Shown piece after piece: positions 11,329 to 27,910 of a stretch of 64,000 nucleotides of DNA (positions are counted from its first letter, which is position 1; every line of letters begins with the position of its first letter). Under the pieces are notes generated by a model, which was given only the letters and a program-made list of their open reading frames with translations, did not search any database and was not told where the DNA came from. The position numbers and the translations under genes were made by a program. Origin of the DNA: Pyrinomonadaceae bacterium (GTDB lineage Bacteria > Acidobacteriota > Blastocatellia > Pyrinomonadales > Pyrinomonadaceae); NCBI GenBank assembly GCA_041499185.1, contig JBGQJU010000012.1:4790-68789 (forward strand), read 5' to 3'.

Positions 11329-12705
11329 ATGCTAATTCCCGGATGGATTCTCGACGAGATTAAGGCAGACCAAGAATTGAGACCTTCCGAGGGCCGCCTC
11401 CATTTGGCTAATTTAGTAGCTTCTACGGAGCATCACGCAAAAAAAATTGTTGGCGGTACCGTCCTGAGATATAGGATGGTTAAATTGCACAATCAAGTGG
11501 TGAAGGCCTACGACTTTCCGACAAATCGAACCGCTCGGATCTCTATCAAAGTTCCCGCCATAAACCGCCTGTTTGAGCTTGTGATCGGACTTGCTCATCC
11601 GATGTCGAGAACGGAAGCGATCGTTCTGTACGCAATAGCCGCTGCACATATTGCGGCGGGCGAAAGCATAGGAGCCTCATACTACTATCTTACGTCGTCT
11701 TGGCTCCAGAGAATGGATGAAGAGATTATTGCTCTCGCCTTGAAAACTCTTGTAGATCAAGATTGGAAGGTTCCCATTGAGAGGGATGTGTTAGACGAAG
11801 CATTTCAATTTGTCGAATCACTAATGACGACGAGTTATGAGGGACGCGCGCCTGAGATAGGTGTCGCCGTAACGCGGACAAGAAGACATCAAGACGAGTT
11901 GAAAGCAATAAAGCTCCGGGACCTCCTGCTGTCAAAGAAGACCAGAGCTTTATTTGCCGGACATCGTAATCTTCTCATTTGCACACGGAATGGCGAGGTG
12001 CACCAGAGTTATATTAATCTTTCGCCTTATTCGGATGTGCCGCTAATGCCGAAGGGCCGGCCCTGGTATTTGGCTCCGTACGAGTACCAACCGATCATGG
12101 AGTTTTCGCGCAAACGCAATGCTGTTACGTTCTTGTTAACCCGCAAACGAGAGGTATTGGTTATTCTAGGGTCCCAGATTCATTTCATAAGAAGCGCCCG
12201 AGCGTGGCGCGTTCTCCCGATGGAGAGGTTCATCGGTCTGCTAAGCGAACTCTTATGGAAAAACTCGAAGAAGCGTTTGTCCCGCGATCGTTCTCGTACC
12301 TTGGCTGGATATATCGGAATTCTCTGTCTCTCTTTGCGAGAGCGTGGGAAAGGTGGTCTATTCGGCATTTACGGGAACGGAAGAAAACCCAAGGAATCAT
12401 CAATTCCAGCATCGCTAACAGAAGAGTTTTTTCAGTCTTTGCTTTGTAAGCGACCAATTGTTGAGGTGCCAGTTTCCATGATGTGCAACGCTGCTGCAGT
12501 GGACGGGGCGACTCTGTTGGCCTGGGACGGAACGCTGGAGAGATTTGGAGTTATTGTCAACACAGGGAAGTTGAAAAGTCCGAGCGAAGGAGCACGGACC
12601 CGAGCGGCTGAATTCATCTCACGCCGAGGGATCGCAGTTAAGGTGAGTGAGGATGGAGAGATTACTCTGTTTGCGGCCGGTAAGCCGTTAATGAGAGTCG
12701 ACTAG
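11329..12705 (+). CDS. hypothetical protein with a C-terminal DisA_N/diadenylate-cyclase-like domain (degenerate RHR motif)
   Basis: The C-terminal about 120 aa (GKGGLFGIYG...AAAVDGATLLAWDGTLERFGVIVN...SEGARTRAAEFISRRGIAVKVSEDGEITLFAAG) follows the DAC pattern (DGA...GTRHRAA...vSeetG.isl), with RTR in place of RHR. GC is clearly lower than in the flanking addB and addA. Confidence 0.6.
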   Translation: MLIPGWILDEIKADQELRPSEGRLHLANLVASTEHHAKKIVGGTVLRYRMVKLHNQVVKAYDFPTNRTARISIKVPAINRLFELVIGLAHPMSRTEAIVLYAIAAAHIAAGESIGASYYYLTSSWLQRMDEEIIALALKTLVDQDWKVPIERDVLDEAFQFVESLMTTSYEGRAPEIGVAVTRTRRHQDELKAIKLRDLLLSKKTRALFAGHRNLLICTRNGEVHQSYINLSPYSDVPLMPKGRPWYLAPYEYQPIMEFSRKRNAVTFLLTRKREVLVILGSQIHFIRSARAWRVLPMERFIGLLSELLWKNSKKRLSRDRSRTLAGYIGILCLSLRERGKGGLFGIYGNGRKPKESSIPASLTEEFFQSLLCKRPIVEVPVSMMCNAAAVDGATLLAWDGTLERFGVIVNTGKLKSPSEGARTRAAEFISRRGIAVKVSEDGEITLFAAGKPLMRVD

Positions 12706-12741
12706 CCAGATTACATGTGGACTCCCATGATCGTACTGTTC

Positions 12742-12950
12742 GCGGCTTTGCCGCCCGATGTGCGGTAGGTCTGTGTCTGTCTGTGACCTTCCGTCAGCTG
12801 AAGCCAAGACTTCGGGGCTACGCCCCTGAGATTCGGTAGGGCGTTCAGGATCACCATCGTCTACGGCGCCAAACATATGGGCGCAGCCCCAACAATAAAC
12901 CCTGACACCGGAAGGGCAGAGCCCTTCCGCACATCGGGCGGCAAAGCCGC
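12742..12950. repeat. 209-bp element bounded by perfect 24-bp inverted repeats (MITE- or structured-RNA-like)
   Basis: gcggctttgccgcccgatgtgcgg (12742-12765) is the exact reverse complement of ccgcacatcgggcggcaaagccgc (12927-12950). Internal hairpin ggaagggc-aga-gcccttcc at 12910-12928. Confidence 0.85.
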
Positions 12951-12954
12951 TGCC

Positions 12955-15900
12955 ATGAAACAAAAACAACTCCAACCTGAACAGGCCGCGGCAGCATACG
13001 AAATAACCAGGCACATCTCTGTAACCGCCGGCCCGGGTTCCGGCAAGACGATGGTGCTGGTCGAGCGTTACTTGCACATTCTGCGCGAGCGCAAGCTCTC
13101 GATCGATCAAATCGTCGCCATCACCTTCACCAATCGCGCGGCGAACGAAATGCGCGAGCGTCTCAGAGAGCAACTCAATGACATCCTGCAAAGGGCATCG
13201 GGAGAAGACAGAAAGCATTGGCTTGATTACAAACGCACGCTGGATGGCGCGGTAATCACGACAATTCACGGTTTCTGCGCGCGGCTGCTGCGCGAGTTTC
13301 CGGTCGAAGCGCGTGTCGATCCACAGTTTCTCTTGCTCGATGAGCACCGCGCGGCGATGCTGCTGGAAGCCGTGGTCGAGGAAGCGCTCACGGAGTTTAT
13401 CAGCTCCGGCCACGTCGAAATCTCACGGCTAACACTCGGCGTCGGACGTGGCAAGTTGGCCGCCGCGCTCGCGCAACTTTACCGCGAAGTCCGTGGACAG
13501 GGCCTTTCATTGAAAGACCTCGCGCGGAAGACCGTGCAGAGTCACTCGACCGAAGACGATCATGCGCAGGCACTCAATGAGCTATCGCGTACGATGAATG
13601 ACTTTCTGATATTGCGAAGGACAACTGCGGCGCAAAGAAACAATCAAGCAGAAGTTAGTTCCAATTGGTCCAATCTGCGTCCTTTGCTTCATACCATCCC
13701 CGAGCCCGAAGCGTTGGCTGATTACTGTCGCGCGGTCGAGAGTTTCCGCAAGTCGCGCCCGCAGGCCCGGGGCGATCTTGCGTCGCACGTAAAAGCACTA
13801 GACGAGTTGATTTGGGAAAAGGATCTGCTCGGGCGGGTTCCGCAGCTTTGCCTGGACCTGTTCGCCAAACAGTACGCGCTCGAGATTGTCAACGTGCTGA
13901 CGCGCATCGACGAACGACTGAATGACGAGAAGCAGAAACTGTCGGCGCTTGATTTCGACGATCTCGAACTGCGCGCGCTTGAACTGTTGGAACGCCCGGA
14001 AGTACTAACGCGTGCCGCTGAGCGATACAAATTCTTTCTGGTTGACGAGTTCCAGGACACGAATGGTTTGCAGCGAAGGCTGCTCGAGCGGCTCGCTTTT
14101 CAGAAAGGCCGCCGCGAAAGCGCGAACCTGTTCATTGTCGGCGATCGCAAGCAGTCGATCTACGGTTTTCGTGGTGCGGATGTCGATGTCTTCCGCGAGA
14201 TGACAAACACGTTGACGGCGGCCGGCGGTGAATCAAAACCGCTGCTGCTAAATTTTCGCAGTCAGCCGCCGCTGATCGATTTTTTCAATTACCTGTTCGA
14301 GCGATTGTTCCAGCCCAAAGAAGAGGTCACTCAGCAGGAGCGAGAAGAGCTGGGCTATGTCGAGCACGAACCGAGCGAAGCGAAACGTGAACTGCGCGAT
14401 AGCGGACCGCTGGTTGAGTTGCTGGTGACAACGGAAGCGTCGGGTGACGATGACGATCCAAAAGCGGAGCAAACCTCTCGCGAGCTTGATGCGGAACAAT
14501 TGGCGCGACGGATTATCGACCTTACGGGGAGCGCAGGCACTATCCACTCAGACAAGTTGGCAATTCCAATTGAAGGCGGGCAGGATGCCCGCGCTCCCAG
14601 GTACAGTGGTATCGCGCTCCTGTTTCGCGCGATGACCAATGTGCAACGGTACGAATCGGCTTTTCGCCGCGCAAATATTCCTTATCAAACGGTGCTTGGG
14701 CGAGGCTTCTACCAACGCGAAGAAATCACCGATCTGATCCAACTACTGCGATTTCTCGATAACAAAACCGATGAGTTGGCGCTGGCGGCGGTGCTGCGTT
14801 CACCACTGTGCGGCGCATCGGACAATGCCTTGCTGGCGCTGCGTTGCGCGCCGTGGCTGGATGAACTAGACAGCGGCGATCCGCTGCTGCACTTCACGAA
14901 CACGCGCCATCTGGTTACCGCACTGCGCCGGCATCGCGAGATAGCATTTATCAGCGATGAGGAACACGCGCTGCTCGATCGCGCGGCCGAACTAATCAAC
15001 GATCTGGTGGTGCGTCGACATCATTACGCCCTCGGCGATCTGTTGCGGTTCGCAGTCGAACATTCAGAATACTTGACTGTGATTGCCGCCACCTTCGACG
15101 GCGCGCAGCGGCTGGCGAATGTGCAACGGCTGTTCACGCTCGCCGAGCGCTTCGAACGCTCAGGCACTCATCTAATTCGCGACTTTGTGCGCTACGTTGA
15201 GGAATTCGAGGCGATCGGCAGCCGCGAAAGTGAAGGGCAGATCGATGAAGCCACGAACGCCGTGCGCTTAATGACCATTCATCAGGCCAAGGGTCTCGAA
15301 TTTCCTGTAGTCATCATTCCCGAGCTGCAGCGATACTCTAAGGTGATGGATAACTGGTTCCTCTCGGATCGTCATCGCGGTCTGACTCTGAAGGTGCCAG
15401 ACGGACGCGGCAAGTTAGTTGCCGGCTGTACCTTTAACCGCTTCGAACAACGCCACGCCTGGCGCGAGCAGTTTGAAAGCATGCGGCTGCTTTATGTCGC
15501 GGCGACCCGCGCGCAGGATCGATTGATACTCTCGGGCACAACCAAGGAACTCGAAGGTCTCACCGGCAAGAGCGATACCTGGCTGAAGTGGATCTGGCAA
15601 TCGCTCGGTCTGGAAGCTCAAACGCAGAGCGGCGTCATCGATCTAACTGACGATGTCCAGATTCAGCTTTCACTGAACCTTGCGGACCAGCCGGAGCAAC
15701 CAATACTTGCCGAGGCAACGACGACGGAAAAGACTTGGGAAGCTGCGGATTCACTCGCTGAAGCTTTCCCGTTGTTGAAGCTGATCGAACCTGGGCGAGC
15801 TGCCGGCCTGCATCGTTTCAGCGTCACACAGTTGATCAACTATCGCCGTTGTCCGCGTCAATACTATTTCGATCGGGTGTTGCGGTTGCCATCGTCGGAA

Positions 15901-21791: not shown

Positions 21792-22028
21792 ATCTGGGTT
21801 GCGCTCGGAAGTCTCGAGCGAGTTCTTTCAAATCATCATGGTTGCCGATAAGAGCCGTCTCTGCGCGAAAGCCTCAGGCGGCACGCACTTACCAGCCTAA
21901 GTTCCATGCAACGGGAATACGGTAGTGGGAGTTCCCGAAGAAACGCAAACGTCAACCGCAAGTGGACAAACGGCGTTCGCATGAATGATGACGGGGGCAC
22001 GGTCCCCAACGATTAAGGAAATAGAAAC

Positions 22029-24659
22029 ATGAAGATAACTAAACAATCCACCACCATAACGTGGCTGACAAGCTTGGCGCTGTTGGCTTCGTTATTTGTG
22101 AATAGCCCCGCGAGCACGGTTAGAAACGCTCGACTTGCCCAACGCGCCACTGCCCGACAAGATGGCAGGCCCGCTGATTCAGCGCTCTCGCGCTACGCGG
22201 TAGACCTGACCAAGTTGGCGCGCGCCGGCCAGCTCGAAACTGTTAAGCGTCACAAAGCAGAGCTTAACCGCATCGTCAGTATTCTCTCTGAGGATCCGCA
22301 GCATAACCCGGTGCTCATTAACGAGTCAGGCGCCAGCGATCAGTTTGAGATCGCGGCGGGCCTGGCGCGAGAGATCATCTCAGGCCCAGTGCCGGAGGGC
22401 CTGCTGAATAAGCAGGTCTTTAGTCTGAATCTCGAGGCACTGTCGGCTGGCGCGAAAGACACCAGCGAGTTTGCTGCTCGCTTGCAGGCGATCTTGACCG
22501 AAGCCGCAGCCGCGGAAGGTGAGATCATACTTTTCGTCGATCAGCTTCATCAGTATGTAGGTACTTACGCAAATCAGGTGGCCTCGGCAGCCATACGTGA
22601 CGCGCTCAAGCAAGGCCAGTTGCGCGTGGTGGGCGCGGCTACATCTGACGCCTATGCCACATACATTTCTGGCGACGAATCGCTGACCAGTCTCTTCCAA
22701 ACAATTCGTATCGGCGACGAGATCGCTAAGGGCTCAGAGTCCGGCAAACGTGGCCTATCCGAAAACGAAGAGAGCGATACCGACGACCAGGCGTTTGTTG
22801 GTGACAAGGTTTCCGCAGACCTGCGCGCATTGATGCAGAGCGCGAGTTCCGCCAACGATCACGTCGGCGTCATTCTGCAAGTGGATGACGTGAGAAATGC
22901 GGAACTGGCCTCGCTGCTGAAGCGCAATGGCGTCTTGATCAACAATCGCATGGCGCAGCTCGGCGTGCTCAAGGTTCAGGTTCCCGTCAAAGCGATTGAA
23001 GAGCTGGCTGGCAGCAATTTGACCAACCACCTTTCACCAGACAGAGGGCTCGAGTCCTTTGGTCACATTACAGCTACGACCGGAACTGATCAGGTGCGCA
23101 CGCAGAGCATTGGGTCCATCATCAATGGCGTGCCATTACTCAGAGCCCTTACGCTTGACGGCACAGGTATTGGCATCGCCGTGCTCGATTCCGGCATTGA
23201 CAAATCACACGTGACCGTCAACGGCTATGTCACGTTTAGGAAAGACTTCACGACTGAGAATCTGCTCGACATAGATCCATATGGTCATGGCACGCACGTG
23301 GCTTCAGCTGCTTCCGGCCTCAGCACAGATACCAACAATACGTACCAGGGTATCGCCCCCGGTTCCAGTCTCATCAACCTGCGTGTGCTGAATTCTCAGG
23401 GAACAGGCAGCACGTCCACTGTGCTAAGCGCGCTCAACTGGATTCTCAGTCCGGCTGATCCGACCAAGCCGTTGAGTTCGACGAATCCGCTTAACAAAGA
23501 CAAGTACAACATTCGCGTCGTCAACCTGAGTCTCGGCGCCTCAGCAGTCGATTCTTATAAGAATGATCCGCTCTGCCGCGCGGCGCGCGCATTGGTGGAC
23601 GCAGGAATCGTCGTCGTGGCCGCCGCTGGTAACAACGGCAAGGACGCCAATGGCAACAAGATCTATGGCCAGATACATTCGCCTGGCAACGAGCCTTCGG
23701 TCATTACCGTTGGAGCTGTCAACACGTTCGGCACGAACGTACGCAGCGATGACGGCATTGCCACCTATAGCTCCCGCGGTCCGACGCGAAGCTATTACAC
23801 GGACGCGAACGGAGTGAAACACTATGACAATCTGGTCAAGCCGGATCTGGCCGCGCCCGGCAACAAGCTAATCTTTGCTGAAGCTGACAATGGCAAGGGC
23901 GGTCTGAATCTCCTTGTTACGCAACATCCGGAATTGGATGCCGATGTTTCTGAGTCCGATAACAAGCGGATGATGTACCTGAGCGGCACATCAATGGCGA
24001 CGCCAATCGTTGCCGGCACAGCTGCTCTATTGCTGCAAGCCAATTCAAAGCTGACGCCGAACATGGTTAAGGCGCTATTGATGTACACCGCACAGCCAAT
24101 TAAGGGCTTCAATATGTTGGAGCAGGGCGCCGGCGAGCTGAACGTTGAAGGCGCGGTGCGTGTGGCGAAGCTCGTGCGTACAAACCTGTCGTCGTCCACA
24201 CCGGCCGGTGATCCCTTCTTGACTACGAGCACAGCTCCGACTCCACAGACAACCATCGCTGGTCAGACTTTCACCTGGTCGCAGGGTTTGATCCTGAACT
24301 ACGACTACGCGACCGGCGTTAATCTCATCATGAAGTACCAGAAGATTTATGGTCTGGGCGTCGTGATGGGTGATGGCATTCTGGTGACCGATTCGACCTG
24401 CACGCTTAATGGCACAATGATGTCGGACGGCGTAGTCATGGGCGACAACATCATGACCAGCAACGGCGTAGTCATGGGCGACGGTTTGCCGTTCCTTGCA
24501 ATCGGCCAACTGCTTGGTGATGGAGTCGTCATGGGTGATGGTGTCGTAATGGGCGACGGCGTAGTCATGGGTGACGGCGTCGTAATGGGTGACGGCGTAG
24601 TTATGGGCGATGCCGCCGTACAAGCCATGGCATCTAACGCGATGATCTTTGGCGACTGA
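22029..24659 (+). CDS. secreted S8 subtilisin-like protease with an N-terminal degenerate ClpB-NBD1-like module, an I9-like propeptide and C-terminal (GDGVVM)n repeats
   Basis: Signal peptide. ClpB-like block YAVDLTKLARAGQLETV...NPVLINESGASDQ...VPEGL...ILFVDQLH...LKQGQLRVVGAATSDAY. Catalytic triad contexts VLDSGID, GHGTHVAS and SGTSMATP. Confidence 0.85.
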   Translation: MKITKQSTTITWLTSLALLASLFVNSPASTVRNARLAQRATARQDGRPADSALSRYAVDLTKLARAGQLETVKRHKAELNRIVSILSEDPQHNPVLINESGASDQFEIAAGLAREIISGPVPEGLLNKQVFSLNLEALSAGAKDTSEFAARLQAILTEAAAAEGEIILFVDQLHQYVGTYANQVASAAIRDALKQGQLRVVGAATSDAYATYISGDESLTSLFQTIRIGDEIAKGSESGKRGLSENEESDTDDQAFVGDKVSADLRALMQSASSANDHVGVILQVDDVRNAELASLLKRNGVLINNRMAQLGVLKVQVPVKAIEELAGSNLTNHLSPDRGLESFGHITATTGTDQVRTQSIGSIINGVPLLRALTLDGTGIGIAVLDSGIDKSHVTVNGYVTFRKDFTTENLLDIDPYGHGTHVASAASGLSTDTNNTYQGIAPGSSLINLRVLNSQGTGSTSTVLSALNWILSPADPTKPLSSTNPLNKDKYNIRVVNLSLGASAVDSYKNDPLCRAARALVDAGIVVVAAAGNNGKDANGNKIYGQIHSPGNEPSVITVGAVNTFGTNVRSDDGIATYSSRGPTRSYYTDANGVKHYDNLVKPDLAAPGNKLIFAEADNGKGGLNLLVTQHPELDADVSESDNKRMMYLSGTSMATPIVAGTAALLLQANSKLTPNMVKALLMYTAQPIKGFNMLEQGAGELNVEGAVRVAKLVRTNLSSSTPAGDPFLTTSTAPTPQTTIAGQTFTWSQGLILNYDYATGVNLIMKYQKIYGLGVVMGDGILVTDSTCTLNGTMMSDGVVMGDNIMTSNGVVMGDGLPFLAIGQLLGDGVVMGDGVVMGDGVVMGDGVVMGDGVVMGDAAVQAMASNAMIFGD
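24516..24605. repeat. five tandem 18-bp coding units (GDGVVM); degenerate copies extend back to about 24352
   Basis: The units ggtgatggagtcgtcatg, ggtgatggtgtcgtaatg, ggcgacggcgtagtcatg, ggtgacggcgtcgtaatg and ggtgacggcgtagttatg differ only at synonymous positions. Confidence 0.9.
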
Positions 24660-24740: not shown

Positions 24741-25661
24741 ATGTCATCTGCTTTCGCCATCGCTGAGGCCGGGGTAGTTATGCCGCAAGTGTTATCTCCA
24801 TTCGAAGAGTCGGTAAATTCCCTCAGAGTTGAGGCGCTTGGAAGCGAGCACAAGGAAGAAGTCCTCACATTTCTTTCTCGCCGTTCGATTCACACGGTTT
24901 GCATGGCTGGCTACATCGGCGACAACGGAATCGTAAGCCCTCTCAATATGGGGTTCTTCTATGGCTGTCGGGATGAAGCTGGTTGCCTGCAGGGTGTGGC
25001 TTTGATTGGCCATGCCACTTTGTTGGAAGCCCAAAGCGATGAAGCGCTGCGGGCCTTTGCCCAACTCAAACACGAATACTCCGTCTCGCACCTGGTGAGG
25101 GGCGAGCATCAGATGATCGAACGCTTTTGGCGTCACTATGCGGAATTTGGGCATACCCCTCGCTTAGCGCGCCGCGAGTTGTTGTATGAACTGCGAACAG
25201 CGCCGCGCCTTGAAGGTCGCACGCCCGAGTTGCAACTGGCGACTCTTAACGATCTCGAAGAGATCATGACGATCAATTCTGAAATGATCGTTTCGGAATG
25301 CGGGATCGATCCGCTGAAGAAAGATCCATTGGGCTTCCGTGAACGTATGGCGCGCCGCATCAAGCAAGGACGAATCTGGGTTTGGAGGAAAGACGGACGA
25401 CTAATTTTCAAAGTCGACGTCTTTGCGCATACCCTTGCAATGAGCTACATCGAAGGAGTTTACGTGGCTCCGCAGGAGCGAGGCCACGGCCATGGCCTCC
25501 GCTGTATGTCCCAACTCAGTCGCATTCTGTTACAACACTCACAATCAATTTGCCTGCTAATTAATCAGCAAAAAGAAGGTCTCGCAGCTTTTTATGAGAA
25601 AGCGGGATTTCAATTCCGCGGTGTCTACGACACGATCTACCTCCATCCGGAAGCCAACTAA
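24741..25661 (+). CDS. GNAT-family N-acetyltransferase
   Basis: C-terminal acetyl-CoA-binding style motif QERGHGHGLRCM and FYEKAGFQFRG. The ATG at 24741 follows GAGAGG. Confidence 0.7.
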   Translation: MSSAFAIAEAGVVMPQVLSPFEESVNSLRVEALGSEHKEEVLTFLSRRSIHTVCMAGYIGDNGIVSPLNMGFFYGCRDEAGCLQGVALIGHATLLEAQSDEALRAFAQLKHEYSVSHLVRGEHQMIERFWRHYAEFGHTPRLARRELLYELRTAPRLEGRTPELQLATLNDLEEIMTINSEMIVSECGIDPLKKDPLGFRERMARRIKQGRIWVWRKDGRLIFKVDVFAHTLAMSYIEGVYVAPQERGHGHGLRCMSQLSRILLQHSQSICLLINQQKEGLAAFYEKAGFQFRGVYDTIYLHPEAN

Positions 25662-25684: not shown

Positions 25685-27910
25685 ATGGCATTGCCAAAAC
25701 AAAGACTCACTGATCTCTACATGTGGCCGCTCACGGTGGCGGGCGCAGTTGTGTGCGTCTTTGCGGCCTATCGTCTCCCGGTTGCAAAGATCGATCTCTA
25801 TTTCCTGCTGCTGGTTCTCACTACTTTGATAATGGGATCGCGGGTCGCGATTCGTATTCCGCGCATCAACACTAACATCACGCTTGACGACACTTTTGTT
25901 TTTATCGCGCTGCTCCTTTATGGCGGTGGAGCAGCCACGCTACTCGGCGCGGTGAGCGGTACTTGTTCCGCGCTGCACTTCAGCAAGAAACCACGGACTG
26001 TGCTTTTCGCCGGTGCTAGTCTGGCTTGCGCGGTCTACATTACTTCGTTTGTCTTGACGTTCGCGTTGGGCTCGACGACGGAGTTGCTTCATCACGGTCC
26101 CGCGCTTTCCATTATCGCCGTCGGTCTGATGGGACTGGTGCAATATCTTTCACACACCGGTCTGGTCGCGATCGCCAACGCCCTGAAAGATGATCAAAAG
26201 ATCTGGCACATGTGGAGCCAGAATTTCCTCTGGATATCAATCACCTATTTCGCCGGTGCCGGGGCCGCCGGAGCGATTGTTACCATGATTGGTACAGCCG
26301 GCTTCTATGCCTTTTTGATTGCGATACCGATCGTAGCCATTGTCTATTTTAGTTACGACAAATACGTCAAGGACGTTACGGCGTCTGCCAGCCAGGCTGA
26401 ACTGGCGGAACGCGCCCGTGCCGAACTTGAGCGCGAGCGCGCCGAACAGGCGGAACGTCATGTCCTCGAGCTTAATAGTTACATTGCAGAACAAGAGCGC
26501 ATCAGTCTGGCGCTGGAAGAAACTAAGGAACACTTTCGGCATGCAGCCTTTCACGACCCCCTGACGGGCTTGCCCAATCGCCTGATGTTCGCCGAACTCC
26601 TGAAGGCCGAAATCGAAAGCGCTAAACACCGCCACGATCACTTATTCAGCGTGTTGTTTCTCGACCTCGACCGTTTCAAGAACATCAACGACAGTCTCGG
26701 ACACACTCATGGAGATCTGTTGCTCGTGGCGTTTGCCCAACGTTTGGAACGTTGTCTTCGTCCGACAGATACGCTGGCGCGTTTTGGCGGCGACGAATTC
26801 GCGATCCTGCTCAGTGGCATCAAGGATGCCAGCGATGCAATCAGGGTCGCTGAGCGGATCCAGCAAGAACAGACTGTACCCTTCGAGCTCGATAAGAACT
26901 CGGCGTTTACTACTACCAGTATTGGCATTGCGCTCAGTACCACTGGCTACGAGCGGCCCGAAGACATTCTCAGAGACGCCGACACGGCCATGTATCGCGC
27001 GAAGGAGAATGGGAAGGCTCGGTACGAAATGTTCGATCAGGGGATGCATGCGCGCGCCGTATCGCGTCTGCGTTTAGAGGGTGATCTGCGGCAGGCAATT
27101 GAGCAAAAGGAATTCTGTATTCATTACCAGCCCATCGTTACCATCGAAACAGGAAGACTCGCCGGCTTTGAGGCACTGGTGCGCTGGAATCATCCGGAGC
27201 AGGGCTTGGTTCCTCCAGACGAGTTTATTCCTGTGGCCGAGGAGACCGGATTGATTGTGCCGATCGGACAGTGGGTCCTGGAACAGGCATGCATGAAGTT
27301 AAAGGAGTGGCAACAGCAATCACCATGCTTCCGATTGTTGAGTCTCAGCGTCAATCTCTCCGCAAAACAAATGTCTCAACCCGACCTCGTAGATCAGGTT
27401 AAGGTAGCCCTTGAAGCAAGCAAGCTCAATCCGCATTGCCTGAAGCTGGAGATCACAGAGAGTGTGGTCATGGAGAATGCCGAAGCCGCGACCACGATGT
27501 TTAAGCAGTTGCGCGCCCTTGGTGTGCAGCTCAGCATCGACGATTTTGGCACCGGCTATTCGTCTCTCAGTTACCTGCACCGCTTCCCGGTAAATTATCT
27601 GAAGATTGATCGCTCCTTTGTCAGCCGAATGGCCGATGCAAACGATAATGCGGAAATCGTGCGCACGATTGTTACCCTGGCACGCAACTTAGGGATGGAA
27701 GTCATCGCGGAGGGAGTGGAAACTCAGGAGCAGCTCGAACAACTCAAGGCGCTCGGTTGCGAGTACGGCCAGGGGTATCTCTTCTCGCGACCGGTTGATA
27801 CCGCAACGGTTCCCACACTGCTCGCTAACGAGCTGGCGCGCGAGACCGGCCTGAATCTTCCGGAGATTTCTCCTCAAGAAGAACCGGTGATGAGCACATA
27901 CCAAATGTGA
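25685..27910 (+). CDS. membrane-bound GGDEF-EAL (diguanylate cyclase/phosphodiesterase) protein
   Basis: N-terminal polytopic membrane region, a coiled coil, RFGGDEF, then EAL motifs FEALVRW and DDFGTGYSSL. Confidence 0.9.
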   Translation: MALPKQRLTDLYMWPLTVAGAVVCVFAAYRLPVAKIDLYFLLLVLTTLIMGSRVAIRIPRINTNITLDDTFVFIALLLYGGGAATLLGAVSGTCSALHFSKKPRTVLFAGASLACAVYITSFVLTFALGSTTELLHHGPALSIIAVGLMGLVQYLSHTGLVAIANALKDDQKIWHMWSQNFLWISITYFAGAGAAGAIVTMIGTAGFYAFLIAIPIVAIVYFSYDKYVKDVTASASQAELAERARAELERERAEQAERHVLELNSYIAEQERISLALEETKEHFRHAAFHDPLTGLPNRLMFAELLKAEIESAKHRHDHLFSVLFLDLDRFKNINDSLGHTHGDLLLVAFAQRLERCLRPTDTLARFGGDEFAILLSGIKDASDAIRVAERIQQEQTVPFELDKNSAFTTTSIGIALSTTGYERPEDILRDADTAMYRAKENGKARYEMFDQGMHARAVSRLRLEGDLRQAIEQKEFCIHYQPIVTIETGRLAGFEALVRWNHPEQGLVPPDEFIPVAEETGLIVPIGQWVLEQACMKLKEWQQQSPCFRLLSLSVNLSAKQMSQPDLVDQVKVALEASKLNPHCLKLEITESVVMENAEAATTMFKQLRALGVQLSIDDFGTGYSSLSYLHRFPVNYLKIDRSFVSRMADANDNAEIVRTIVTLARNLGMEVIAEGVETQEQLEQLKALGCEYGQGYLFSRPVDTATVPTLLANELARETGLNLPEISPQEEPVMSTYQM

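Follow-up and report, generated by a model that had tools for sequence, protein, structure and literature searches.

AAA+ motor domains are defined by the ATP-driven work that they do in ATP-containing compartments. A gene of a Pyrinomonadaceae bacterium raises the question of what such a domain is doing in a protease that carries a predicted signal peptide. The gene lies in a 64,000-nt stretch of contig JBGQJU010000012.1 (assembly GCA_041499185.1, positions 4,790 to 68,789 of the forward strand), hereafter the window, whose numbering is used throughout; its ORF, 22029-24659 (+), encodes an 876-aa protein. The original prediction, a reading of the sequence, described this protein as a secreted S8 subtilase with a dead module, similar to nucleotide-binding domain 1 (NBD1) of the chaperone ClpB, at 22182-22734, which corresponds to residues 52-235. 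We find that a dead ClpB-derived domain in a subtilase pro-region is confined, in our searches, to Pyrinomonadaceae and Blastocatellia.

The N-terminal module is homologous to ClpB NBD1

The NCBIfam equivalog model for ClpB (TIGR03346) matched residues 30-248 against model positions 134-353 with 157 bits (E = 5e-46), a score far under the whole-protein cutoff of 1232. The NCBIfam models for ClpV, ClpA, ClpG and ClpK scored lower on the same protein, and ClpB was the best-scoring Clp type for 26 of 26 sampled modules. When the Protein Data Bank (PDB) was searched with phmmer, residues 44-248 matched the ClpB NBD1 structures 4hse, 1qvr, 1jbk and 4d2q at E values of ~1e-35 to 5e-36. The HMMER alignment pairs these residues with ClpB 152-358 (Escherichia coli, 4d2q/6qs4; Thermus thermophilus, 1qvr/4hse), and all five blocks that had been quoted as matching ClpB were recovered in it. 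BLASTP against the NBD1 segment of E. coli ClpB gave 39.5% identity over 200 aa.

An AlphaFold2 model of the full-length protein, built from 59 family sequences, contains an alpha/beta domain at residues 50-232 with a predicted local distance difference test score (pLDDT) of ~90. In Foldseek searches against the PDB, this model matched ClpB NBD1 crystal structures, 1jbk with a template modelling (TM) score of 0.87 and 4hse with a root mean square deviation (rmsd) of 1.7 Å at 41% identity. Pfam returned no AAA, Clp or I9 model for the protein at E <= 1, only Peptidase_S8 and weak hexapeptide-repeat matches; it took NCBIfam and PDB searches to reveal the N-terminal homology. The AAA+/Clp relationship that had been proposed is borne out by these searches and by the predicted structure, although the Pfam AAA models are silent. 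Relative to cytoplasmic ClpB, the module has gained Ala and Ser, has lost Lys and Gly, and is net acidic. The match is far beyond chance, and these results indicate that the module is a genuine ClpB-NBD1 homologue.

The motifs of an ATP-driven motor are lost across the family

The Walker A motif of the query has lost its Gly, Lys and Thr and gained a one-residue insertion (NESGASDQ versus GEPGVGKT in ClpB). GK[ST] is not intact in any of the 58 full-length homologues, among which GETGAGKA, in one member, comes closest. In Walker B of the query, the catalytic Glu is replaced by Gln (DQ for DE), and the 58 homologues mostly have DQ, EN or ED at this site, few of them keeping DE. Two other elements are gone as well: the pore-loop Tyr (E. 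coli Tyr251; KYRG has become KDTS) and both Arg fingers (E. coli R331/R332; ERRF has become TSLF). Neither the Tyr nor the RR pair occurs in any of the 58. The positions originally given for the loss of the Walker A Lys/Thr (22320-22343) and for the Walker B Glu-to-Gln change (22539-22544) proved exact, translating to NESGASDQ and DQ. The accompanying claim that ATPase activity is very unlikely holds as far as the motifs tell, and the loss reaches beyond that description, to the pore-loop Tyr, the Arg fingers and the Walker A Gly.

The match to ClpB stops at model position 353, the boundary of the large subdomain, with a disordered linker from residue 232. The NBD1 lid, M-domain, NBD2 and N-domain are absent from the 876-aa protein, in which Pfam gave no second AAA match. 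The most ClpB-like members, P0055 and P0036 (~45% identity to E. coli ClpB), retain the adenine-loop IGRD motif, and because they do so, the pattern suggests progressive decay after a single capture.

Canonical ClpB relies on the pore-loop Tyr and on a hexameric ring to engage its substrates, and the lid subdomain is required for ring assembly. Because lid, P-loop and Arg fingers are missing, a hexameric ring is unlikely for the module, and ClpB-like substrate threading is disfavoured. Judged by its motifs, the module is catalytically dead, with no ATPase or unfoldase capacity. By homology and fold it belongs with Clp/Hsp100, but it has none of the functional hallmarks that we tested, and we advise against classifying it as a ClpB or AAA+ ATPase.

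The module is inserted ahead of the propeptide in a family of S8 proteases

A search covering 5.8 billion proteins returned >60 full-length homologues, 850-898 aa in length and with identities of 44-63%, so that the same architecture, which it had been proposed to look for, does occur in other genomes. These proteins are named only as S8 peptidase or AprX and come, where a source is named, from metagenome-assembled genomes (MAGs) of Pyrinomonadaceae or Acidobacteriota. Of the 120 top-ranking homologues, 92 have the ClpB-like module. When 185,579 reference genomes were scanned, >579 relatives came up, and the best 80 loci, from which the taxonomy was taken, all lie in Pyrinomonadaceae, Pyrinomonadales or Blastocatellia MAGs. 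Among the loci fetched (n = 88), ~59 have the module and ~24 do not. The most divergent modules (loci L006 and L063) were missed by tblastn with the query module, and presence was read from the distance that separates the gene start from the S8 domain, together with blastp to ClpB. The identical query protein was found on seven contigs from several MAG assemblies, which together with the many orthologues rules out an assembly chimera.

Module-less paralogues of ~650-690 aa consist of a signal-like N terminus and a short spacer followed by the motif GDK(V/I)SxDLR, and share the propeptide, S8 domain and tail with the module-bearing proteins. Because these paralogues join signal peptide and propeptide directly after the short spacer, the module and its linker represent an insertion between the two. 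Both forms can occur in one genome: gp4 AA16 has one copy with the module and one without. Two module-bearing copies are found in each of SMAG_U11517, SMAG_U1756 and La5_metabat2.134, and two module-less copies in SMAG_U3366. In a neighbour-joining tree of the S8 domain, calculated without support values, module-bearing and module-less clades are interleaved.

A profile of the module was also searched against 1.84 billion representatives, with 150 matches listed. Among the matches listed, 128 are ordinary Clp/Hsp100 proteins and 21 lack a P-loop, of which 20 belong to the present family and one is scrambled. Divergent architectures with a dead module could hide beneath the thousands of ClpBs.

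Proteins outside the family were also noted. The scrambled protein, P0122 (666 aa), is the sole P-loop-less match outside the S8 family among those listed; its three copies of ClpB NBD1 are scrambled and in part deleted, none with an intact P-loop, and from its sequence it looks like a pseudogene or misassembly. A separate group of 550-1020 aa among the top profile matches (P0123-P0127, P0134, P0139 and P0163) has two or three tandem ClpB-NBD1-like AAA+ domains, an unusual architecture in which each domain has an intact Walker A, the domains lie ~270-300 aa apart with AAA_lid_9, and M-domain spacing is absent.

The module is under purifying selection and co-inherited with the protease

Ratios of nonsynonymous to synonymous substitution (dN/dS, omega) were calculated by the NG86 method on 11 close pairs. 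Median values were 0.13 (module), 0.16 (propeptide), 0.10 (S8 domain) and 0.12 (post-S8 domain), versus 0.48 (linker). Over longer distances the module resembles the propeptide rather than the S8 domain, with mean identities of 0.38, 0.42 and 0.68, respectively. The gap fraction within the module is 0.01, although identity drops to 18-30%. Pairwise distances of module and S8 domain are correlated (r = 0.81, Mantel p = 0.001), from which it follows that the module travelled with its protease. A recently pseudogenised clpB, considered as a candidate, is ruled out by the omega of 0.13. Strong purifying selection thus acts on the module, which is no relic in decay; since it is under selection, it does something.

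The conserved positions are of a particular kind. Invariant or near-invariant residues are mainly hydrophobic or small (L53, L60, L86, A113, L125, L133, L168, F169 and G202), T61 is the only nearly invariant polar residue, and no conserved polar surface residues were found in the family alignment of the module.

The protein is probably exported as a subtilisin-type zymogen

Signal peptides were recognised with a heuristic: the n-region is basic, a run of at least ~12 residues is hydrophobic and free of charge, and small-residue sites are present, often A-x-A and then Q. Besides the query, 51 of the 58 full-length members pass it, in agreement with the signal peptide originally placed ahead of the module; among short sequences without the module, 31 of 41 do so too. 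No twin-arginine motif was seen in the N termini of the query or its homologues. The signal region has a mean identity of 0.30, versus 0.16 in the spacer that follows. AlphaFold2 models a helix at residues 8-23, coinciding with the h-region, with mixed confidence (10-residue block means of 52-76). The cleavage site of the query is ambiguous and could fall as late as after LAQ38. Taken together, these features make export of the protein probable.

Behind the module and linker, the propeptide is modelled at residues 260-345 as alternating helices and strands with pLDDT >90. In the family alignment, as in the short paralogues, it opens with the conserved GDK(V/I)SxDLR motif. The Pfam Peptidase_S8 model (PF00082) matched residues 378-690 with E = 5.6e-47 and 160.9 bits, against a cutoff of 21.8, and the residues D387, H420, N535 and S655 are invariant in 59 aligned sequences. 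The catalytic domain (residues 378-700) is modelled mostly with high confidence, apart from several low-confidence loops. In Foldseek, the propeptide and catalytic part match the unprocessed pro-subtilisins 3afg (ProN-Tk-SP, E = 4.6e-26), 3whi and 2e1p over 446-502 alignment columns, the propeptides of those structures included; PCSK9 with its prodomain (5vlh) is matched as well. An I9-like propeptide and a complete S8 triad had been predicted. The triad stands, and so does the propeptide as far as its fold is concerned, but Pfam Inhibitor_I9 gave no match to the query propeptide at E <= 1.

A hexapeptide tail (residues 781-876; 24369-24656) is conserved family-wide, module-less paralogues included, and Tandem Repeats Finder (TRF) reports a repeat of period 18 with 5.1 copies at 24516-24607. 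The Pfam Hexapep/LbH models match the query weakly and the paralogue P0060 more clearly, and AlphaFold2 gives residues 779-876 a pLDDT of ~30. The tail may form a left-handed beta-helix or have an anchoring or oligomerisation role, which would be unusual for a subtilase.

A proposed role for the module in the pro-region

On balance, we think that the module probably serves as an ATP-independent, self-folding accessory domain of the pro-region, which leaves together with the propeptide and affects solubility, latency or localisation rather than catalysis. In this scheme, an ancestral copy of the large alpha/beta subdomain of ClpB NBD1 entered the gene precisely where the signal peptide gives way to the first propeptide helix. 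The subtilase zymogen would be exported through Sec, and the module would fold alone after export, tethered to the N terminus of the propeptide by a flexible acidic linker. Subtilases generally autoprocess at the junction of propeptide and catalytic domain; here the zymogen would do so at the disordered propeptide/S8 junction, and module and propeptide would depart from the enzyme as one fragment. The module would modulate the solubility, latency or localisation of the zymogen. We infer both its removal with the propeptide and its regulatory or solubility role. The loss of the elements for nucleotide binding, hydrolysis, threading and hexamer formation fits a compartment without ATP.

A two-domain AlphaFold2 run on residues 48-348 placed both domains at pLDDT >90 and the 26-residue linker between them at <50; the predicted TM score (pTM) in this soft test was 0.61, roughly what the larger domain would give by itself. 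In the full-length model residues 232-253 are disordered, and the stretch at residues 232-272 has a net charge of -4. The models suggest a string-of-beads arrangement in which module and propeptide do not pack against each other in a fixed way. The functions first suggested for the module, namely substrate binding, intramolecular chaperoning or inhibition, are only partly plausible. Because module-less paralogues exist, the module is dispensable for folding of the protease, and because they coexist with module-bearing copies in the same genomes, an essential role for it as an intramolecular chaperone is unlikely.

Several points weigh against this proposal. The signal peptide is called by the heuristic alone. 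A contact between module and S8 domain is possible in principle, the full-length pTM of 0.63 being uninformative on the point. In certain subtilases, PCSK9 among them, the cleaved prodomain remains bound, and by analogy the module would then stay with the mature enzyme. Purifying selection at an omega of 0.13 is stronger than a solubility tag would appear to need and hints at a more specific function. Finally, the module-less paralogues are silent on what the module adds.

Other readings of the module

That the module stays with the active enzyme is rather unlikely. In this reading the propeptide either remains bound non-covalently as in PCSK9 or is not cleaved, and the module would be a lasting subunit of the extracellular protease that targets it, recruits its substrates or binds partners. 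An omega comparable to that of the catalytic domain, co-inheritance with the protease (r = 0.81), a flexible tether suited to a recruiting arm and the Foldseek match to PCSK9 with its prodomain (5vlh) are in its favour. Against it stand the lack of conserved polar surface residues and conserved positions that are mainly hydrophobic or small. The propeptide evolves at the fast rate typical of propeptides (0.42 identity), and its junction with the S8 domain is disordered, as in cleavable zymogens.

An ATP-independent activity of the module outside the cell appears quite improbable, whether it were to capture unfolded polypeptides for the protease as a holdase or to form a Lon-like, self-compartmentalising pseudo-AAA+ ring. 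The ClpB fold is kept at ~40% identity with high model confidence and under strong selection, and the fusion of an AAA+ domain to a protease recalls Lon and FtsH. Yet the pore-loop Tyr is absent in 58 of 58 homologues, the Arg fingers are gone, and the lid subdomain, which provides the interface between protomers, is missing; moreover, propeptide and disordered linker stand between the module and the protease, and the module surface is not conserved.

We give very little credence to the idea that the module is a functionless passenger, the slowly decaying relic of an accidental fusion to a clpB fragment. In its favour, all catalytic motifs are destroyed, and some paralogues that intermingle with module-bearing ones in the S8 tree do not have the module, through repeated loss or through absence. 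The dN/dS of 0.13, against 0.48 in the adjacent linker, largely refutes this, and a module with almost no indels (gap fraction 0.01) at identities down to 18-30%, a pLDDT of ~90 and retention in ~59 loci from many species does not look like a relic either.

Scarcely credible, finally, is a cytoplasmic or membrane-anchored protein or module with an uncleaved N-terminal hydrophobic stretch: the heuristic origin of the signal call, the ambiguous cleavage site and the JGI name 'AprX', which denotes a Bacillus protease that is not known to have a classical signal peptide, speak for it, but 51 of 58 members have a basic n-region, a hydrophobic stretch and A-x-A-like sites, module-less paralogues have similar N termini, the signal region is better conserved (0.30) than the next spacer (0.16), a Shine-Dalgarno motif precedes this ATG, an uncleaved N-in anchor would still leave the rest of the protein facing outward, and a cytoplasmic location gives no reason for the family-wide loss of ATP binding.

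Comparison with known systems

The module has the same large-subdomain fold as NBD1 of ClpB/Hsp104 (1jbk, 4hse and 1qvr), at ~40% identity, with a TM score of 0.87 and rmsd of 1.7-2.9 Å, and the captured fragment ends near the boundary of the crystallised ClpB NBD1 construct 1jbk. It differs from ClpB NBD1 in having no catalytic motifs and in its place behind a signal peptide in the pro-region of a protease. The S8 zymogens pro-Tk-SP (3afg), pro-Tk-subtilisin (2e1p) and pro-subtilisin E (3whi) share the order of signal peptide, propeptide and catalytic domain, the triad and the oxyanion Asn with the present protein. Unlike them, this protein has an AAA+-derived domain of 185 residues and then an acidic linker ahead of the propeptide, and it ends in a hexapeptide tail.

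Lon and FtsH also combine an AAA+-type domain and a protease in one polypeptide. These, however, are cytoplasmic rings with S16 or M41 proteases, in which the AAA domain is coupled directly to the protease chamber, whereas the present protease is S8 and predicted to be exported, with a cleavable propeptide and a disordered linker in between. In LonC-type Lon-like proteases, an inactive AAA-like domain persists beside the protease. The degenerate Clp NBD of SMAX1/D53 (PF23569, NBD_SMAX1) is likewise Clp-derived with degraded motifs. Several homologues of our protein (P0035 and P0050 among them) have weak precomputed matches to PF23569, and the query has none at E <= 1. In plants, SMAX1 proteins reside in the cytosol or nucleus, and their Clp architecture still has both NBDs.

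For a pseudo-AAA+ module in a compartment topologically outside the cytosol, the best-known precedent comes from LAP1 and LULL1, the partners of Torsin, which is itself Clp/Hsp100-like. LAP1 is an activator of Torsin with an atypical AAA+ fold that lacks nucleotide-binding motifs (PMC4358337), and the luminal domains of LAP1 and LULL1 keep an Arg finger with which they activate Torsin (PMC4358337, PMC4999309). These eukaryotic proteins differ from ours in the Arg finger, which is strictly conserved in LAP1, in the ATP-containing lumen and in the lack of a protease fusion, and there is no family-level homology. In the dead module described here the Arg fingers have been lost, and neither ATP nor a partner AAA+ protein is expected outside the bacterial cell. 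Of the precedents LAP1/LULL1, SMAX1/D53 and the Lon-like proteases, not one concerns the pro-region of a protease that bacteria secrete.

A full-text literature search for ClpB/AAA+-subtilase fusions, Pyrinomonadaceae proteases and secreted pseudo-AAA+ domains found no description of any of them, in line with the earlier statement that no ClpB-subtilase fusion was known. The putative extracellular reuse of this motor domain from the cytoplasm appears to be undescribed.

Feature layout and genomic surroundings

The features of the gene are collected in Table 1.

Table 1. Features of the protease gene and its product, with the evidence for each.
Feature	Residues	Window coordinates	Strand	Evidence and remarks
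Shine-Dalgarno-like AAGGA		22015..22019	+	9 nt 5′ of the ATG at 22029; direct sequence reading
Sec-type signal peptide (predicted)	1 to ~26	22029..22106	+	Charge/hydrophobicity heuristic; AlphaFold2 helix at residues 8-23
Signal peptide parts (predicted): n-region MKITKQS, h-region TTITWLTSLALLASLFV, c-region NSPA		22029..22106	+	Heuristic
Disordered, weakly conserved spacer	27-47	22107..22169	+	pLDDT <50 at residues 24-48; mean pairwise identity 0.16
Dead ClpB-NBD1-like AAA+ large alpha/beta subdomain	48-231	22170..22721	+	TIGR03346, PDB, AlphaFold2, Foldseek, dN/dS
Degenerate Walker A NESGASDQ (ClpB GEPGVGKT)		22320..22343	+	Alignment and translation
Degenerate pore loop 1 AGAKDTSEF (ClpB AGAKYRGEF)		22446..22472	+	Alignment and translation
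Walker B remnant ILFVDQLH (ClpB ILFIDELH)		22527..22550	+	Alignment and translation; Glu to Gln at 22542-22544
Arg-finger region SLTSLFQ (ClpB ALERRFQ)		22680..22700	+	Alignment and family comparison
Acidic disordered linker	232-257	22722..22799	+	pLDDT <50 in both AlphaFold2 models
Subtilisin-type N-terminal propeptide	258-345	22800..23063	+	AlphaFold2, Foldseek, conserved starting motif
Propeptide/catalytic junction, presumed autoprocessing region	346-377	23064..23159	+	pLDDT <50 at residues 345-373; cleavage presumed from subtilase biology
S8 subtilase catalytic domain	378-700	23160..24128	+	Pfam PF00082
Catalytic triad	D387, H420, S655	23187-23189, 23286-23288, 23991-23993	+	
Oxyanion Asn	N535	23631-23633	+	
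Beta-rich, conserved post-catalytic domain	701-780	24129..24368	+	AlphaFold2 strands, pLDDT ~75-90; mean pairwise identity 0.57
C-terminal hexapeptide-repeat tail (G-D-G-V-V-M)n and stop codon		24369..24659	+	TRF, weak Hexapep/LbH matches

The upstream neighbour is a kynureninase-like class V aminotransferase, and upstream genes differ between loci. In the 425-nt upstream intergenic region there was no Rfam match and no sigma-70-type promoter match, and terminator-like matches in the 5′ region are at chance level. The window as a whole (64,000 nt) contains no second S8 or Clp-like sequence.

Directly downstream lies a gene for a two-lobed GNAT acetyltransferase of ~305 aa (24741-25661, +). Such a gene is also found on the same strand, 12-80 bp downstream of the protease, at L003 (10688-11626), at L004 (10745-11656) and at L008 (8100-9023), whose protease is module-less; it is absent beside L005, L006 and L007. 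Because the GNAT gene stands beside the module-less L008 and is missing from the last three loci, it is not tied to the module, but protease and GNAT may form a conserved gene pair. A GGDEF/EAL membrane protein follows the GNAT both in the window (25685-27910, +) and at L004, the P0004 locus (11667-13922), which amounts to three-gene synteny in closer relatives. In a divergent clade (P0081 and P0050), the GNAT context is replaced: a conserved pair of genes for an HtrA-like trypsin-PDZ protease and a DUF5658 protein lies upstream (L005, 3833-5605; L006, 2172-4055), and a ~303-aa protein with faint Hexapep matches is encoded nearby.

Implications

The family is a natural case of pseudoenzyme-domain reuse, in which the large subdomain of NBD1 proves selectable as a stand-alone, nucleotide-free fold. 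It raises the question of what a ClpB fold does without ATP, pore loop or ring. If the module did act as a holdase or ring, no earlier extracytoplasmic use of a Clp/Hsp100 domain would be known to us from bacteria, and nature would have provided an ATP-free AAA+ scaffold. The proteins also expose an annotation gap: at 850-900 aa they go under no other label than 'S8 family peptidase/AprX', and in most of them the domain escapes Pfam. Module-bearing and module-less paralogues paired in the same genomes offer a ready comparison for the study of zymogen maturation in these abundant, little-studied soil bacteria.

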